A stretch of 64,000 bases of DNA. It comes from a virus (lineage: Duplodnaviria; Caudoviricetes). The notes under the pieces were generated by a model. It was not told where the DNA came from. It made no database searches and saw nothing but the letters and a program-made list of their open reading frames with translations. How positions within the stretch are numbered: the first letter of the stretch is position 1; each line of letters starts with the position of its first letter. Location of the stretch: IMG/VR virus record IMGVR_UViG_3300014205_000004, positions 60,497 to 124,496 of that record; one strand, written 5' to 3'. Of this stretch, positions 1,003 to 15,552 are shown in pieces. A program made the translations under genes and the position numbers.

Positions 1003-1295
1003 TGGAACGCTACAGCAAAAACAACGCCTGCCCGAAGTGCTCATACGGACCCAGCCCGCGCCTGCCAATCACAACAACCTACCACTTCAATCGGTGCCAG
1101 CTGGTGCCAGACGACGACATCGTGGAGCACTTCGACCGGCAGTGCCCACGGTGTAGCTACCTGTGGGCGGAACAAACGTTGAGTACGCCGAGGAACTGGC
1201 TCGAACGGCACGTCGTGGTCACGACAGAGCTGGCGTTCGCGCTCGGTGGGGTTGCCGGAGGCGTCGTCTTCTTTCTTACGGAGGGATCATTGTGA
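1002..1295 (+). CDS. Zn-ribbon protein with C-terminal hydrophobic segment
   Basis: CPKC...CPRC motifs; coupled start and stop. Confidence 0.6.
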   Translation: MERYSKNNACPKCSYGPSPRLPITTTYHFNRCQLVPDDDIVEHFDRQCPRCSYLWAEQTLSTPRNWLERHVVVTTELAFALGGVAGGVVFFLTEGSL

Positions 1296-2218
1296 AACGC
1301 ATCCTCGCTCTCTCGCCCGACCTCAGCATCAAGGGCTTCGTCAACATCCGGCCGGACGCGCAGTTCACCTTCCCTGGTGGCGAGCGCCACGTGGACATCA
1401 GCAGCTACCTGCCGTCCGGGTCACCCGCGCGGCTGAAAGCGTACGTGTCCTCTCGCCTGGAGACGTCTGACGACCTCATGGACCTGCTCCTGGCTGTCGA
1501 CGCCCTCCAGCGCCGGTACGTCGGTATCCGGATCGCTGCGTACCTTCCGTACATCCCCTACGGAAGGCAGGACCGCTACCAGGAAATAGGTACGCCGTTC
1601 AGCCTCGCCGTAGCGGCCCAACTCATCAACTCCTGCAACTTCGCGTCGGTGCACACCCTTGACCCGCACTCCAGGGTCACAAGGGAACTCATCAAGAACC
1701 TGCGCGTAATGCCGATCGATCCCTTCTACATGTTGGCGATCGACAACCTCAGCTATGAGTGGGACGAGAGCAAGGGCATCTACATCTTCAACGAAGATGT
1801 CCCGGTTTTCGTCGCTCCGGATGAAGGCGCTGCAACGAAGCTGCCACCAAGGTACCTCGTTGACGACGGCGAGGACTGCTCGGTCATCTACGCCAAGAAG
1901 ACGCGTGACCCGCTATCCGGAATGGTAACGCCTCGCCTCGACGACCTGGTCTGGACGTACGGCAGCACCCGGCCAGCACTCATCATCGACGACATCTGCG
2001 ACGGTGGGGCGAGCTTCACCACACTCGCCAGGGCACTCAAAGCCGCGGGCGCACCCAGGGTGTACCTGTTTGTCACCCACGGGATCTTCTCGAAGGGGCT
2101 CCAGCCTCTGCGTGACGCCGGTATTGACCGCGTCTTCACGACCAACTCCCGGAGCTTCGTGCCTTCGACAGACGAAGACCAAAAGTTCCTCAGCATCTAC
2201 CGAATAGCGAAGGGGTAA
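1292..2218 (+). CDS. ribose-phosphate pyrophosphokinase-like protein (candidate ADPR-PP synthetase, Adps)
   Basis: FPGGE, PYIPYGRQDR, LDPHS, VAPDEGA, IIDDICDGGASF and VTHGIFSKG match the Prs fold; GTG start at 1292. Confidence 0.9.
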   Translation: MKRILALSPDLSIKGFVNIRPDAQFTFPGGERHVDISSYLPSGSPARLKAYVSSRLETSDDLMDLLLAVDALQRRYVGIRIAAYLPYIPYGRQDRYQEIGTPFSLAVAAQLINSCNFASVHTLDPHSRVTRELIKNLRVMPIDPFYMLAIDNLSYEWDESKGIYIFNEDVPVFVAPDEGAATKLPPRYLVDDGEDCSVIYAKKTRDPLSGMVTPRLDDLVWTYGSTRPALIIDDICDGGASFTTLARALKAAGAPRVYLFVTHGIFSKGLQPLRDAGIDRVFTTNSRSFVPSTDEDQKFLSIYRIAKG

Positions 2219-2220
2219 CA

Positions 2221-3681
2221 GTGACCACCCAACGAAACGTCCTGGAGTGTACCGACGTCTACAAGCTCGGACACCTCCTGCAGTACCCGGAAGGTACCGA
2301 CTACATCTACTCCTACCTGCAGGCGCGTACGGACAAGAAGTTGCCCGAGACCGTCTTCTTCGGGCTTCAGTACTACCTCACGGAGTACCTCGCGAAGCGG
2401 ATCAGCCACTTCGACGTGGACAAGCTCGTGCAGATCCATGAAGTCATCCTCGGCCCGGTGCGCCCGGCGATGCTCGACAAGCTCTACGCTCTGGCGAACC
2501 TCGGGTACTGGCCGATCTCCATCAAGGCCGTACCTGAAGGCACCGTCGTGCCCGTCCAGAACGTCCTCATGACCATCACCAACACCGTCCCTGGCTTCGG
2601 CTGGTGCGTCGGGTTCCTCGAAAGCCTTCTCCTGAAGGTCTGGAACACGATCACCGTGGCCTCGTACTCGCTCCGGCTCCGCCGGCTCGTCAACGCCTTT
2701 GCCGAAGCAACGTGCGACGACTTCAGCCACCTTCCCTTCCAGGTCCATGACTTCGGCTACCGCGGCGTGTCCTCCGAGGAGACCGCCGAGTTGGCCGGCG
2801 CTGCGCACCTGCTCAACTTCTACGGCAGTGATACGGTCCCGGCCGTGCGCATGCTGATGAAGTACTACGACGCGCACTTCCCGATTGCGCTGAGCGTGCC
2901 GGCCACCGAGCACTCGGTCATGTGCTCGACCGGGCCCGGCGGCGAGTTCGACGCATTCGAACGCCTCATGTTCCGCACGTACCCGGACGGCATCGTCTCG
3001 ATCGTATCGGACACCTACGACCTCTGGCGCGTCCTCACCCAGTACGTGCCGCGGCTCGGGCGCAGGATTCTCCAGCGCAACGGCAAGGTCGTGTTCCGGC
3101 CCGACAGCGGTGACCCGGTGAAGGTGATCTGCGGTGACCCGACCGCGGCACCGGGAACGCCGCAACATCGTGGCGCACTGAACATCCTCTGGGACACGTT
3201 TGGTGGGACCGTCAACAGCAAAGGCTACCGTGTCCTCGATCCGCACGTCGGCCTCATCTACGGCGACGGCTTCTTCTTCGAACGGTTCGAAGAGGTCCTG
3301 GGCCAGATGAAGGCGAACGGCTTCGCCAGTTCGAACCTGGTGGTCGGTATCGGCGGTCTCCTGCTCCAGGCGCACACGCGCGACGAGCTCGGGTTCGCCA
3401 TCAAGGCTACGTTCGCTGTCATCGACGGCGAGCCGGTCGAACTCTTCAAGGACCCGGTCACCGACTCCAAGAAGCGGTCTCACAAGGGCCGGCTGGCGCT
3501 TCACCTCGAAGACGGTGAGTGGGTGACCAAGCAGGGCGTGTCCGAGAGCGAAGAGAAGAACGGCCATCTGGTCGAGGTCTACCGAGACGGATGGATCCGT
3601 AAGCTGCAGTCCCTCGATGAGATCCGTAGCCGCATCGACGTTTCTACCGGTCTGCGGCCGCTCGAACTGGTGGCAGCATGA
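2221..3681 (+). CDS. nicotinamide phosphoribosyltransferase-like protein (candidate Namat)
   Basis: TDVYKLGH, HDFGYRG, SVPATEHSVM, SIVSDTYD, RPDSGDP, IYGDG, RD..GFAIKA and KDPVTD..K.S.KG are Nampt-family motifs. Confidence 0.93.
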   Translation: MTTQRNVLECTDVYKLGHLLQYPEGTDYIYSYLQARTDKKLPETVFFGLQYYLTEYLAKRISHFDVDKLVQIHEVILGPVRPAMLDKLYALANLGYWPISIKAVPEGTVVPVQNVLMTITNTVPGFGWCVGFLESLLLKVWNTITVASYSLRLRRLVNAFAEATCDDFSHLPFQVHDFGYRGVSSEETAELAGAAHLLNFYGSDTVPAVRMLMKYYDAHFPIALSVPATEHSVMCSTGPGGEFDAFERLMFRTYPDGIVSIVSDTYDLWRVLTQYVPRLGRRILQRNGKVVFRPDSGDPVKVICGDPTAAPGTPQHRGALNILWDTFGGTVNSKGYRVLDPHVGLIYGDGFFFERFEEVLGQMKANGFASSNLVVGIGGLLLQAHTRDELGFAIKATFAVIDGEPVELFKDPVTDSKKRSHKGRLALHLEDGEWVTKQGVSESEEKNGHLVEVYRDGWIRKLQSLDEIRSRIDVSTGLRPLELVAA

Positions 3682-4019
3682 ACGACCAACTGCTTCACAA
3701 GCGTCAGAACATCCAGTGGCTCCTCAATGCGGAGCGTCTGCGCCAGCTGGACCTTCAGCGTGAGGGCCGGTTCCAGTACACCTGCTCCGACCCGGAACTC
3801 TCTCCGGCCGAGCGCCTCGCGGTCCTCACAGAGGAGGTCGGCGAGGTAGCTCGACACGTCAACGACCACACCGACCACAGTGTCGACTGTCAGTCCGAGC
3901 TCATCCAGGTCGCGGCAGTTTGCCTGGCTTGGCTGGAGTCGTACAACAACTACGAACGTCAGGACCATGGCCGTGTGTCGCTTTCCGACTACGGCAAGAT
4001 CAACGATCAGCGCACGTAG
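3678..4019 (+). CDS. MazG-like nucleotide pyrophosphohydrolase
   Basis: LTEEVGEVA...ELIQVAAVCLAWLE motif. Confidence 0.8.
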   Translation: MNDQLLHKRQNIQWLLNAERLRQLDLQREGRFQYTCSDPELSPAERLAVLTEEVGEVARHVNDHTDHSVDCQSELIQVAAVCLAWLESYNNYERQDHGRVSLSDYGKINDQRT

Positions 4020-4041
4020 TAAACTACGTACGTAGACACGG

Positions 4042-4120
4042 CCGCATGTAGTTCAGGTAGTGATGAACGCCGGGGGTTCAGACCCGGATGTCGCTGGGGC
4101 AGGTCCAGTCATGCGGTCCA
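4042..4120 (+). tRNA. aberrant tRNA / tRNA-like gene; 8-nt anticodon loop GGUUCAGA (UCA anticodon after U33); encoded CCA
   Basis: Acceptor CCGCATG/CATGCGG + T + CCA; U8-A9; D stem GTTC/GAAC; anticodon stem CCGGG/CCCGG; 5-nt variable loop; T stem GCTGG/CCAGT with non-canonical loop GGCAGGT. Confidence 0.75.
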
Positions 4121-4231
4121 TATGGAGAACACAGATGCGTCCTCGCTGAATACAACCTTAGCCGCTCACCCCCGGTAGCGAGTCTTCGCACGAATCGACA
4201 ACAACTCGACAGCAACATCAGGAGACCAAGG

Positions 4232-4693
4232 GTGTCTAACTCAGGACTTGACCACATCAGGGTCAAAATCATCAATCAGGGCGACGAAGCCCGCACGATC
4301 GCCGCGCAGGAACGCCGGCTCGCCAAGAAGCTCAAGCGCGCTCGCGAGCGTGCAGTCCCCATGGAGCACATCTGCGACCTGGAGGGTCGCATCACGTCAC
4401 TGCGGAACCACCGGCGCATGCCTCTCCGCAGCGACACGCGCGCCGCAAACGTCGCGTACGCGTACCTCCGCAACAAGGCCTACCGCCAGGTGGAGCAGTC
4501 CGCAATCACGTCGCCGGACTGGGACAAGGCCAAGGCCATGGTCGTCCGGTTCTCGGGCTACATGAACGCCGACATGAAGGCATGGAAGATGATGGACTTC
4601 GAGCAGTGGGCGAAGACGGGCGTCGAGACGCCGCGGTACTGCGCTCCCCCGAAGCCCAAGAAGCCTTATGTGCGGGAAACCGCCGCGGCCTGA
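4232..4693 (+). CDS. basic phage protein of unknown function
   Basis: GGAG RBS then GTG 4232; motif LRNHRR..LR...R...VAYAYLR.K.Y..VE resembles a recurrent phage hypothetical family (from recall, not searched). Confidence 0.7.
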   Translation: MSNSGLDHIRVKIINQGDEARTIAAQERRLAKKLKRARERAVPMEHICDLEGRITSLRNHRRMPLRSDTRAANVAYAYLRNKAYRQVEQSAITSPDWDKAKAMVVRFSGYMNADMKAWKMMDFEQWAKTGVETPRYCAPPKPKKPYVRETAAA

Positions 4694-11690: not shown

Positions 11691-12314
11691 ATGCAACCTG
11701 GTGAAATCGACGGAAAGACGCTCACGCAGTTCGTCATGCATTCGAACGCCATCGAAAACGAGCACCACGACTACATCGAGCAGCGGTTCCAGGCTCATAT
11801 CGGCATCGCGGCAGACATCGCCGCATCTCCCGACTCGGGCTGGCTGTTCACGAAGGACGGGTTGCTGGTCGCGCATCGCGCGCTGATGCAGCACGACCCT
11901 TGGAAGTTCCCCGGCGAGCTCCGGCAGATGGATGTGTTTGTAGGGCAGGACAAGAAGATGAGTCCCTGGCAGGTTCGAGAAGAACTCCCGGATCTCCTGT
12001 CGTTTGCGCGCCGCGGCCTCCCTCACGACCACGCGGACCGGGAAGCGTGGGCGTGGCACGTCCACAACTGGTTCGAGCACATTCACCCCTTCTGTGACGG
12101 CAACGGCCGTCTCGGCCGTCTCTTCCTCAACGCTGCTCGCCTGTACGTCGGCCTGCCCTGGCTTGTCGTGTGGGAGTGGGAGCGGTGGCAGTACTACGAC
12201 CGCATCATCGGATGGGAGCGGGACCTCAGCGCTTGGTTCCGGCAGATGCCCGACGGCCTCAACATCGATGACTTCGTCCAGGCCTCGCTCACTTCCTGGA
12301 GCACTGCCGCATGA
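11691..12314 (+). CDS. Fic-domain protein (AMPylase-type)
   Basis: Intact HPFCDGNGRLGR catalytic motif; N-terminal SNAIEN inhibitory-type motif. Confidence 0.9.
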   Translation: MQPGEIDGKTLTQFVMHSNAIENEHHDYIEQRFQAHIGIAADIAASPDSGWLFTKDGLLVAHRALMQHDPWKFPGELRQMDVFVGQDKKMSPWQVREELPDLLSFARRGLPHDHADREAWAWHVHNWFEHIHPFCDGNGRLGRLFLNAARLYVGLPWLVVWEWERWQYYDRIIGWERDLSAWFRQMPDGLNIDDFVQASLTSWSTAA

Positions 12315-12444
12315 TGGTCATCGCTACAAACGCCATCCACCACCCAGGTCGTTGGGATCGCAAACGCGGCCGGCGTCGCTGCAGGCAGTACCTGCCTACG
12401 GCGAAAGCCTTTCGGCTGTTCCTCTACACGTTGGAGAGGTAGCC

Positions 12445-12588
12445 ATGTCGAAGAGCAAACCACAGCGCTGCCGTCACTATCTCACCACCTACAAAACCGA
12501 CAGCGAGAGCCTCGTCTGGAAGGTCTGCACCAGCTGCGGCACAGCCTTCGAATCCACGCCCATCAAGAATCCCATGGAGTTCGTATGA
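12445..12588 (+). CDS. small Zn-binding protein
   Basis: GGAGAGG RBS; CRH...CTSCG; ATGA-coupled to the next gene. Confidence 0.5.
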   Translation: MSKSKPQRCRHYLTTYKTDSESLVWKVCTSCGTAFESTPIKNPMEFV

Positions 12589-13073
12589 TCATCAAAGCCC
12601 CGACACTATGGGTGTCCAACCCCAAGTACCTGCTGGACCTCTCGGTCTTCCTGGCCGGTTCCATTGAGATGGGTGAGGCCGTCAACTGGCAGGACTCGCT
12701 CGGTAAGCGTCTGGAGGCGAATGACTTCCTGGTCATCAACCCGCGGCGCGATGACTGGGACGCGTCCTGGACGCAGTCGATCGAGAACCCCGAATTCCAC
12801 ACGCAGGTGTCCTGGGAACTCAACTCCATCACCGAGGCTGACTGGGTGGTCTTCCACTTCGAGCCGGGCACGCAGTCGCCCATCACACTCATGGAGCTCG
12901 GCTACGTCGCCGGCGCGTTCCCGGACAAGGCCATAGTCCACTGCCCAGAAGGCTTCTGGCGCAAGGGGAACGTGGACATCGTGTGCGAGCGCTTCGGTAT
13001 CTACACCGTAGAGCGTCTGGGCGACATACCGGACCTGCTCAGCGAGTTGGCAGGCCTGAGTTGGGCAGCGTAG
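12585..13073 (+). CDS. nucleoside 2-deoxyribosyltransferase-like protein (second type)
   Basis: VFLAGSIEMG..NWQ, NPRRDDWD, QVSWEL, SPITLMELG, CPEGFWRKGNV. Confidence 0.85.
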   Translation: MIIKAPTLWVSNPKYLLDLSVFLAGSIEMGEAVNWQDSLGKRLEANDFLVINPRRDDWDASWTQSIENPEFHTQVSWELNSITEADWVVFHFEPGTQSPITLMELGYVAGAFPDKAIVHCPEGFWRKGNVDIVCERFGIYTVERLGDIPDLLSELAGLSWAA

Positions 13074-13684: not shown

Positions 13685-14338
13685 TTGTCACAAGCACTGG
13701 CACCTAACCACGTACGGATCCTCTCGGGTGGCTTCGCTTATGCGTCGCGCAACCCGCAGCCGACCATGTCCGTGGCTACGAAGAATTACCTCAGTGCCGG
13801 TGGAGTGAAGGAAGAGGATCTGCTCTACCTCAGCTACCCGTTGGTCCACGAAGGCACCAACAACAACGGTGACGAGTTCACCGCCGAAGAGATGAAAGCC
13901 TCGTACAAGACGCTGGTTGGCACGGTGGTCGACAAGGACCACAACATGAGCGTCGATGCCATCTGTGGTAAGAACTACGAAGCCGAGTACGTGACGGAGT
14001 CCGGCAAAGGCATCATCAACGTCGACGCGTATGTCTACGCCAACCTCTACCCGGACCTCGAAATCAAGATCCTGGACGGGACCATCAACGCGGTCTCGAT
14101 GGAGTGCTTCTTCGCGCGTTCCGAGCAGGTTGCTCTTCGCCGCCGGCGACTCCACGACATCCAGTTCATTGGCTCTGGCCTCGTCCGTATTCCTGGAGAC
14201 CCCCAGGCCCTGATCAACACCGACGAGCTGGCGGGTGAGACACAGAGTGGTCTCGTCACGCCTGGCCGCACGCAAGCAGACCGCCGCCGCTTTGCAGCGA
14301 TTGCCGCGGCTGTCATCGCCCTCCAGGAGGTTGCCTAA
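13685..14338 (+). CDS. putative prohead maturation protease
   Basis: N.NGD.F, DKDH, VSMEC, F.G.GLV..P.D..A pattern; lies between portal and capsid; start uncertain. Confidence 0.65.
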   Translation: MSQALAPNHVRILSGGFAYASRNPQPTMSVATKNYLSAGGVKEEDLLYLSYPLVHEGTNNNGDEFTAEEMKASYKTLVGTVVDKDHNMSVDAICGKNYEAEYVTESGKGIINVDAYVYANLYPDLEIKILDGTINAVSMECFFARSEQVALRRRRLHDIQFIGSGLVRIPGDPQALINTDELAGETQSGLVTPGRTQADRRRFAAIAAAVIALQEVA

Positions 14339-15552
14339 TGCCCGAACTCAACGAATCCAACGAACTGCTGTCCCCCGACGAGATGCGGACGTACCTGGCC
14401 ATGGCCAAGGAACTGATCACGCTGGAGCGCGTGGAGGCGGAGAACGCCAGCCGGCCGCGCTACGCGGATGCGGCGCGCATGCGCTTCCCTGTCTACACGG
14501 CAGAACTGGCTGTCGCTTCGAAGGTGTTCTACGACAACGCCAATGAAACGCACAAGGCCGTCTACTCCGCAGAACAGTGGGAAAACATCGGTAACGTTAT
14601 CAGTGCTGCACTCGGGTACACCAATGCGGCACACAACGAAGAAGAAGATGTTAATCTGGTCTTGCAGGCCATGGTTTTGGTGCGTGAGCTTGTAGCCCGT
14701 GAGGCTATCGATGGCGCACCCGACTCCACTTGGAAACTCAGTGACCTGGTCTACTGTCTGCAGCTTCTCTGCTCGCTCAAGTGGCAGGAGGAGTGGGACG
14801 TCTACTTCCAGGAAGAAATGGCCGAAGCCAGCGTTTCCGAAGAAGAAACCACCGCGACGGACACCGTCGAAATCATCACTGCCACGGAAGGTGAAGAAGA
14901 CATGGCAATTTCTGACGACGATCTGGCAAAAATTGCCGAGGTCAACAAGGCGTCGAACGAGGAGCTCAAGCAGTCCCTCGCCGACAACACCGCGGCCCTC
15001 CTGGCTGGCCTGAAGGAAATCCTCTCGGCCGCTGCTCCGGTCGCTCCGGTTGTTGCTTCCACGGAAGTCGAAGCCGAAGTCGAAGCCCCGGTCGTCGAAG
15101 CCCAGGGCCAGGCCGAAGCGGCCTTCCCGCCGGCCGACGACAAGAAGGACGAAGAGGACGACGAGGAAGACGACAAGGATTCCAAGGCGTCCGCCCCGGT
15201 CGCTCCGGTCGTCGCCACGAACCTGACCCCTGCTGAGCGCGCTGGTCGCGCTGCTGAACTCGCCCTTGACCAGGAAGCCGAAGCCGCCAAGGCCGAAGCT
15301 GCCGATCGTCTCGAAGCGAACGTCGGTGGGGGTGGCGGTGCTGCCAGCCTCGGCACCCTCGGTACGGCTTCGTTCCGCCTCTGGGACCCGGCCGATGTCG
15401 ACAAGGTCCTCTCGGCTCAGCGCGAAAGCGTGACTGCCGGCCTCACGAAGCGCCTCAAGGGCACGGCCATCGCCGTTGCAAACGGCGGCGGTCCCAAGCG
15501 CGACGCGTCCGAGTACGCCGAAGCGTTCATCGCTCTCCTTTCCCGCAACTAA
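14338..15552 (+). CDS. putative scaffolding protein
   Basis: Acidic, Ala/Glu-rich low-complexity protein between protease and capsid genes. Confidence 0.55.
   Translation: MPELNESNELLSPDEMRTYLAMAKELITLERVEAENASRPRYADAARMRFPVYTAELAVASKVFYDNANETHKAVYSAEQWENIGNVISAALGYTNAAHNEEEDVNLVLQAMVLVRELVAREAIDGAPDSTWKLSDLVYCLQLLCSLKWQEEWDVYFQEEMAEASVSEEETTATDTVEIITATEGEEDMAISDDDLAKIAEVNKASNEELKQSLADNTAALLAGLKEILSAAAPVAPVVASTEVEAEVEAPVVEAQGQAEAAFPPADDKKDEEDDEEDDKDSKASAPVAPVVATNLTPAERAGRAAELALDQEAEAAKAEAADRLEANVGGGGGAASLGTLGTASFRLWDPADVDKVLSAQRESVTAGLTKRLKGTAIAVANGGGPKRDASEYAEAFIALLSRN

Follow-up and report, generated by a model that had tools for sequence, protein, structure and literature searches.

A tRNA-like cloverleaf lies downstream of NAD-salvage and MazG-like genes

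The phage genome is a single-contig virus of IMG/VR with a length of 124,496 bp, a GC content of 61%, direct terminal repeats and a CheckV completeness of 100%. The window, which is the whole stretch of 64,000 nucleotides that was analysed, corresponds to the right half of this record (60497-124496), and all coordinates given here without a contig name are those of the window. Near its left end, a Prs-like gene and a NAMPT gene are followed by a gene encoding a MazG-like protein, homologues of which carry the name NTP pyrophosphatase (Table 1). The start of the MazG-like gene overlaps the NAMPT stop by the sequence ATGA, and the two genes are thus coupled. The MazG-like reading frame is closed by an in-frame tandem stop, TAG TAA (4017-4022), embedded in a small hairpin (4015-4028).

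A cloverleaf element sits 22 nt beyond the MazG-like gene, in a 212-nt gap between two genes on the plus strand. An initial annotation of this DNA had described a complete cloverleaf with a perfect 7-bp acceptor stem, U73 and an encoded CCA, positioned directly after NAD+ and MazG genes, and our analysis bore out each of these points. The downstream gene encodes a 153-residue protein whose sole match among 5.8 billion proteins was itself, with the same start, and searches for a family, an atlas entry or a structure gave no lead. We considered whether the sequence between 4088 and 4231 might be the 5' part of this gene, and rejected this on third-position GC, rare codons, and the ribosome-binding site and GTG at 4232. 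The third-position GC of this stretch, counted by eye, is approximately 58%, compared with approximately 80% in genes, indicating that it is non-coding. A promoter and terminator scan detected neither a sigma-70-like promoter nor a terminator in the 212-nt gap.

Two perfect palindromes, CTACGTACGTAG and TCCATATGGA, flank the cloverleaf. Palindromes of at least 10 nt are no commoner genome-wide than in simulations (146 versus 148-161). The presence of two within one 212-nt gap is mildly unusual, with a roughly estimated probability of approximately 0.03.

Table 1. Genes and sequence features of the cloverleaf locus (window coordinates)
Feature	Coordinates	Strand	Description
Prs-like gene	1163-2218	+	Pfam/PHROG matches; NAD-salvage pair with NAMPT
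NAMPT gene	2221-3681	+	Pfam/PHROG matches; NAD-salvage pair with Prs-like gene
MazG-like all-alpha NTP pyrophosphatase gene	3678-4019	+	113 aa, EExGE motif; phrog_2831, E 1e-12
Small hairpin (CGTAG-TAAA-CTACG) and palindrome	4015-4035	+	Just upstream of cloverleaf; spans MazG-like TAG-TAA tandem stop
12-nt palindrome	4024-4035	+	CTACGTACGTAG; just upstream of cloverleaf
tRNA-derived cloverleaf gene	4042-4120	+	79 nt including U73 and encoded CCA
Acceptor stem	4042-4048 / 4110-4116	+	CCGCATG/CATGCGG, 7 Watson-Crick pairs; C1-G72, not G1-C72
U8 A9	between acceptor and D stems	+	In sequence
D stem	4051-4054 / 4065-4068	+	GTTC/GAAC, 4 bp
D loop	4055-4064	+	10 nt, AGGTAGTGAT; A14 and G15 present
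G26	between D and anticodon stems	+	In sequence
Anticodon stem	4070-4074 / 4083-4087	+	CCGGG/CCCGG, 5 bp
Anticodon loop	4075-4082	+	8 nt, GGTTCAGA / GGUUCAGA; TCA 4078-4080, U33 = 4077, G37 = 4081
G5 run	4072-4076	+	Source of 8-nt loop
Variable loop	4088-4092	+	ATGTC, 5 nt
T stem	4093-4097 / 4105-4109	+	GCTGG/CCAGT, 5 bp, G49-U65 wobble
T loop	4098-4104	+	GGCAGGT; G53-C61, C56 and R57 kept; T54, Psi55 and A58 replaced by G
Discriminator U73 (T4117) and encoded CCA (4118-4120)	4117-4120	+	In sequence
10-nt palindrome	4117-4126	+	TCCATATGGA; left half = U73 + CCA
Downstream orphan gene	4232-4693	+	153 aa, GTG start, AGGAGA ribosome-binding site 4220-4225, 6 nt before start

The element is real, tRNA-derived and missed by standard finders

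RNAfold returned the cloverleaf as both the minimum free energy and the centroid structure (-32.3 kcal/mol). The folding-energy z-score was weak (-1.85), because GC-rich shuffles also fold stably, and we therefore tested geometry instead. Both strands of the whole genome were scanned for the tRNA arm layout only, with a cost of 1 for a G-U pair and 2 for a mismatch. This gave one match in the 124,496 bp, the element at 4042-4120 with a penalty of 1, and no other cloverleaf with a penalty of 6 or less elsewhere in the genome. Ten Markov-simulated genomes contained no matches with penalties up to 3 and 0.4 per genome with penalties up to 6, and the analytic chance expectation for such a cloverleaf is approximately 3e-5 per genome.

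We then built a tRNA covariance model, for which 17 genuine tRNAs of Brevundimonas phage Kabachok served as the training set, and ran it with filters off. The model aligned the element end to end with a score of 27.9 bits (E 5e-5 over 64 kb), which includes sequence matches at conserved unpaired positions, while the next best score was 15.4 bits in the window and at most 13 bits in the other half of the genome. This difference shows that the element is tRNA-derived, and its sequence marks it as descended from a class I tRNA rather than as a new fold. Its identity to any of the 26 phage tRNAs sampled was at most 51-54%, with no clear best isotype.

These results bear on the possibility that the locus is a chance fold or a DNA-level element, such as protein-binding palindromes or a recombination site, and not an RNA gene. 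The modest folding z-score and the two perfect flanking palindromes are consistent with this, as is the finding that the 221-nt stretch across the gap (4015-4235) shows no excess of structure over shuffles (z = +0.44). Against it stand the rarity of a cloverleaf of such quality, which was never seen in simulations, and the contribution of conserved unpaired positions to the covariance score, and we consider this explanation extremely unlikely. A phage attachment site in particular finds no support, as there is no tyrosine integrase. We also rejected an attP copy of a host tRNA gene, since the genome has no match to PF00589 in a search that covered tyrosine integrases only, and since the aberrant T loop could not have come from a working host tRNA.

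The initial annotation had anticipated that standard tRNA finders would overlook this element, and they did. ARAGORN reported no tRNA in the genome, and did not report the element even at a threshold that gave 184 noise calls. The Rfam model RF00005 gave no match, even at E≤10 on 91 nt, and its gathering threshold of 29 bits was not reached. Relaxing thresholds, which the annotation had proposed as a check, thus failed with both programs, and detection came from the unfiltered custom covariance model. The same model behind a first-look filter misses the element, suggesting that Rfam fails probably because its filters drop it. When G54G55 was changed in silico to TT, ARAGORN called a tRNA(tca) at default settings, while in-silico removal of one G alone gave no call. 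The finders therefore fail on this element because its T loop is GGCAGGU.

The annotation had also allowed that the extra G in the G5 run might be a sequencing error. The run is identical, with no indel, in an independently assembled Logan contig of sequencing run X1. This rules out an assembler slip; as X1 is probably the source sample of the phage record, it does not amount to independent sequencing. We conclude that the element is real, that its genome contains no second one and that standard finders do not see it.

The stems and core are intact and the elbow is lost

The element folds as a 7/4/5/5-bp cloverleaf in which 20 of the 21 stem pairs are Watson-Crick and one is G-U. Conserved tRNA positions retained are U8, A9, G10, A14, G15, G26, U33, R37, A44, G46, C48, G53-C61, C56, R57 and the CCA. 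In established tRNA numbering, these nucleotides would allow the usual core pairs U8-A14, G15-C48, G26-A44 and C13-G22-G46.

The three aberrations described in the initial annotation, namely the 8-nt anticodon loop, the GGCAGGU T loop and the 10-nt D loop, are all present in the sequence. In the covariance alignment, the extra G of the anticodon loop falls at its 5' stem-loop junction. In the D loop, the sequence and the model alignment show a single GG at positions 15-16 and none at the place of G18/G19. In the T loop, RNAfold pairs G54 with U60 additionally, leaving a loop of 5 nt. As a result the elbow nucleotides G18, G19, T54, Psi55 and A58 are all missing. The defects are confined to the elbow partners and the anticodon loop.

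At the ends of the element, G-2 and G-1 can pair with C74 and U73, and this pairing could disturb cleavage by RNase P. The encoded CCA is part of a palindrome, and could be coincidental. Bacterial tRNA-Sec (RF01852) has 8/5 acceptor/T helices, a long variable arm and G73. With its 7-bp acceptor stem, 5-nt variable loop, U73 and absence of an Rfam match, the element is not a tRNA-Sec, in agreement with the initial annotation.

One distant relative of the phage lacks the element

We searched for related phages and for variants of the element. In INPHARED, megablast and blastn of the region found no relatives, nor did tblastn of the portal and of a 404-residue ORF in the head module (14338-15552) that is probably a scaffold or capsid protein, and matches to NAMPT all had less than 45% identity. 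Single-protein searches of IMG/VR, run with the portal, the MazG-like protein and the 153-residue downstream protein, were either empty or returned spurious matches of 23 residues. An 18-mer from the anticodon arm had one chance match in IMG/VR (L017), a DNA pattern of the three loops had none, and a pattern of the anticodon and T loops had 112 matches, none with both stems paired. A profile of the MazG-like protein identified 48 loci in metagenome contigs, none of which had synteny, an adjoining tRNA or a cloverleaf.

The portal had two homologues in a large protein set: P0026, which is 55% identical and encoded on a Logan contig of 12 kb, and P0027, encoded on a JGI contig of 2 kb. A profile search identified one distant relative in IMG/VR, G001 (105.9 kb; L204, IMGVR_UViG_3300013121_000004, 59111-80478), with a portal 47% identical and a syntenic portal-protease-scaffold-capsid-tail module. 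G001 has a GC content of 46% compared with 61% here, suggesting that hosts of the lineage differ widely in GC content. NAMPT is absent from G001, as is any tRNA-like element in the vicinity of its portal, and elsewhere it carries a canonical tRNA-Arg(UCU) and a canonical tRNA-Met with encoded CCA (L206:1498-1573 and L207:1498-1573). In G001 only a small gene separates the portal from the protease. In our phage, a cassette of Fic and nucleoside-deoxyribosyltransferase-like genes (11691-13073) lies between portal and protease, and had no tblastn match in G001 (L204:11400-11900); on sequence, this is consistent with a moron insertion.

Over window positions 3800-4500, the same phage was found in landfill (2018), groundwater (2022) and wastewater (2025) metagenomes (runs X1, X2 and X3), and no RNA run was among those listed as containing it. 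The three sequences are identical where covered; coverage is missing over 4029-4096 in X2 and over the element in X3. Since the runs are identical, they offer no natural variants with which to examine covariation. Covarying homologues in related phage contigs, to which the initial annotation had looked for support, were likewise not found in the collections searched.

Stop codon usage and tRNA identity do not point to decoding

The initial annotation had offered three readings of the element, as an opal suppressor, a quadruplet or frameshift tRNA, or a non-translating decoy. In the first two, the RNA would be a decoding tRNA, either reading UGA through its UCA anticodon and charged with Gly or Cys as suggested by U73, or shifting the frame by +1 at UGAA or CUGA by means of its 8-nt loop, perhaps late in infection. 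The UCA directly follows a U33-like base within the 8-nt loop, and once the T loop had been repaired it was this anticodon that ARAGORN read. The nucleotides beside it fit less well: UNN-reading bacterial tRNAs normally have A37, while the element has G37 beside A36, and G32 is also atypical. The elbow nucleotides needed for normal handling by the ribosome and EF-Tu are missing.

The genome was then examined for recoding. In 148 rough gene calls, TGA was the most frequent stop (61), ahead of TAG (51) and TAA (36), and read-through is not required by any gene. No credible in-frame TGA was found in phage genes; a same-frame TGA junction at 12312 was rejected, as the Fic gene stops there and an unrelated gene then starts at an ATG of its own. 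Genes ending in TGA lack a nearby back-up TAA or TAG (median 73 codons, the same as for other genes). In the case of frameshifting, no +1 site stands out; the +1 frames after TGAN stops are the next genes with their own starts. One observation in favour of decoding is that approximately 20 consecutive late or structural genes (12983-41349) use TAA or TAG and never TGA, which is the stop of about half of the other genes. However, the GC-rich control mycobacteriophage CicholasNage (L208), with no suppressor annotated in the 45 kb read, is also TGA-poor in its structural genes (TGA in 4/27, versus 16/37 of others). This trend is weaker, and suggests that such a bias needs no suppressor. Together, these data give neither the opal-suppressor nor the frameshift reading support, and we regard a decoding tRNA as quite improbable.

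The identity of the amino acid that might be attached is equally ambiguous. The bacterial tRNA-Gly identity set consists of U73, G1-C72, C2-G71, G3-C70, C35 and C36. The element has four of the six, with C1-G72 in place of G1-C72 and A36 in place of C36. The GlyRS tally of the initial annotation (U73, C2-G71, G3-C70 and C35 present, G1-C72 absent) was therefore correct at the sequence level, and the absence of C36 is to be added to it. U73 together with C35-A36 fits Cys about as well as Gly.

This partial identity also bears on a role as a dedicated off-ribosome aminoacyl carrier, which a host synthetase would charge and from which a non-ribosomal transferase would receive the amino acid. U73, C2-G71 and G3-C70 resemble a Gly acceptor end and CCA is encoded, while C36 and G1-C72 are missing. 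To our knowledge there is no phage precedent for such a carrier. Searches of the phage genome found neither Fem-type (PF02388) nor Acetyltransf_6-type (PF13480) transferases, and neither a CCA-adding enzyme nor a class II synthetase core, which together make this role very unlikely. The T loop without TTC is nevertheless shared with staphylococcal non-proteogenic tRNAGly, which are functional in this state and avoid EF-Tu and the ribosome (PMC7826273).

The intact stems argue mildly for maintenance

Loss of invariant elbow nucleotides could also indicate decay. The element might be a young tRNA pseudogene in a lineage that once had tRNA genes, which has acquired T-loop mutations and an anticodon-loop insertion and is drifting with no present role. 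The two canonical tRNAs of G001 show that tRNA genes exist in this lineage, our phage lacks any further tRNA, the searches returned no homologue of the aberrant form, and slippage at the G5 homopolymer could naturally give a +1 insertion. Against this, all 21 stem pairs are intact despite at least 5-7 loop changes. If the ancestor was canonical and substitutions were independent and uniformly placed, the chance that 5-7 random substitutions spare every stem is 0.05-0.014. Many conserved positions outside the elbow are also retained together with the CCA, and phage genomes usually delete useless DNA quickly. The intact stems despite the loop changes argue mildly for selection on shape over plain decay. 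We consider a pseudogene possible, but on balance doubtful.

An alternative form of selection would be on a tRNA-like signal acting in cis on processing or stability, at which cleavage by RNase P or RNase Z/E parts the NAD-salvage/MazG-like message from that of the downstream genes, the released RNA having no job of its own. The location between co-oriented genes, in a gap with no promoter-like or terminator-like site, would suit such a signal, as would the A/U-rich stretch that follows the CCA. Bacterial RNase P needs no more than the acceptor/T-stem helix and UCCA, and these are the best-preserved parts of the element. However, the D arm, the anticodon arm and the core tertiary positions are all kept, although a signal for processing could do without them, and the genome holds no second such element. 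A purely cis-acting role therefore seems unlikely.

A non-decoding tRNA mimic is proposed as the best explanation

The lost elbow partners, the odd anticodon loop and the absence of a recoding signal argue against ordinary decoding. The element is probably not an ordinary decoding tRNA, and may have been kept as a tRNA-shaped RNA. We propose as the best explanation, with a probability of roughly one in three, that it is a maintained non-decoding tRNA mimic within an island of anti-defence genes, and probably a bait for a tRNA-directed host enzyme.

In this model, the element would be transcribed from the plus strand as part of the Prs-like/NAMPT/MazG-like message, as suggested by the lack of a promoter or terminator in the gap. 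Host RNase P and 3' trimming would then release the RNA, and the parts that bacterial RNase P requires in a minimal substrate are intact, namely a 7-bp acceptor stem stacked on the T stem and an encoded UCCA. The elbow formed by the D loop and T loop is read by the ribosome and several tRNA enzymes. An RNA released without it and with an 8-nt anticodon loop would be expected to act off the ribosome. Its likeliest job may be to act as bait, or as a spare substrate, for tRNA-attacking host enzymes, for example an anticodon nuclease or a toxin that modifies the CCA end. This role is proposed from the neighbourhood, as the element is placed among counter-defence genes. Immunity directed at tRNA is documented, as are counter-measures of phages that involve tRNAs (PMC10264068, PMC11555353, PMC12851939). 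The staphylococcal non-proteogenic tRNAGly, which work without TTC in the T loop and avoid EF-Tu and the ribosome, are a precedent for an RNA of this kind (PMC7826273). The decoy suggested in the initial annotation is thus the candidate that fits best among its three readings.

More speculatively, the RNA might itself be an anti-defence effector, an elbow-less mimic cut from the NAD-salvage/MazG-like transcript that baits or blocks an immune enzyme aimed at tRNA (an anticodon nuclease, a tRNA-tail nuclease or a CCA-end modifier) while going unseen by EF-Tu and the ribosome; we hold this specific proposal to be doubtful. A bolder variant would have the RNA weakly decode UGA, or a quadruplet containing UGA, late in infection, which would make sense of the TGA-free late block.

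Comparison with known tRNAs and tRNA-like RNAs

Canonical phage class I tRNAs (RF00005), such as those of G001 and the 24-25 tRNAs of Kabachok, have in common with the element the 7/4/5/5 cloverleaf, the 5-nt variable loop and the encoded CCA, as well as U8, A14, G15-C48, G26-A44, G53-C61 and C56. Unlike them, the element has G at T54, Psi55 and A58, no G18G19, an 8-nt anticodon loop and C1-G72, and its covariance score is about half of the 68-69 bits of the G001 tRNAs. Within the Kabachok set, tRNA-Ile(GAU) (L179:1501-1574, minus strand) and tRNA-Pro(GGG) (L183:1501-1572, minus strand) have an apparent C33 for U33, with loops TCGATAA and TCGGGAA.

Several non-canonical RNAs are similar in part. 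Stop-codon-recoded phages carry suppressor tRNAs and in-frame recoded stops. The UCA of the element would likewise pair with UGA, but this phage has no in-frame recoded stops and ends its genes most often with TGA. Frameshift suppressors of the sufD/sufA6 type have an 8-nt loop with the extra base within the anticodon of an otherwise normal tRNA. The element shares the 8-nt loop, but its extra G is at the stem-loop junction of an elbow-less body. The stable RNA species 1 and 2 of phage T4 (rnaC and rnaD) lie within a tRNA cluster, have no full cloverleaf and are of unknown function. Set beside them by description, the element is similarly a small phage RNA with a tRNA-like acceptor end.

The non-proteogenic tRNAGly NP1-NP3 of Staphylococcus aureus and S. 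epidermidis also have U73 and a Gly-type acceptor end (PMC7826273). These tRNAs keep a UCC anticodon and full GlyRS identity and serve Fem transferases (PMC7826273), whereas the element has UCA in an 8-nt loop and lacks G1-C72 and C36, in a phage without a Fem-like gene. Phage tRNAs that evade or replace the targets of tRNA-directed immunity (PMC10264068, PMC11555353) share with the element a phage origin, an altered anticodon loop and a counter-defence setting. They are translation-competent and have canonical bodies, while the element has lost the elbow.

The element belongs with the phage-encoded non-canonical tRNA-like genes. Phage tRNA genes are now understood partly as counters to tRNA-directed immunity, and the known cases are working tRNAs. 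What this element has lost is precisely the elbow nucleotides and the 7-nt anticodon loop; its cloverleaf is complete and it retains the CCA. As a relic, it would document a recent loss of tRNA in a 124-kb phage that has no other tRNA. As a functional RNA, it would mimic tRNA instead of decoding, and would show that standard finders overlook such genes.
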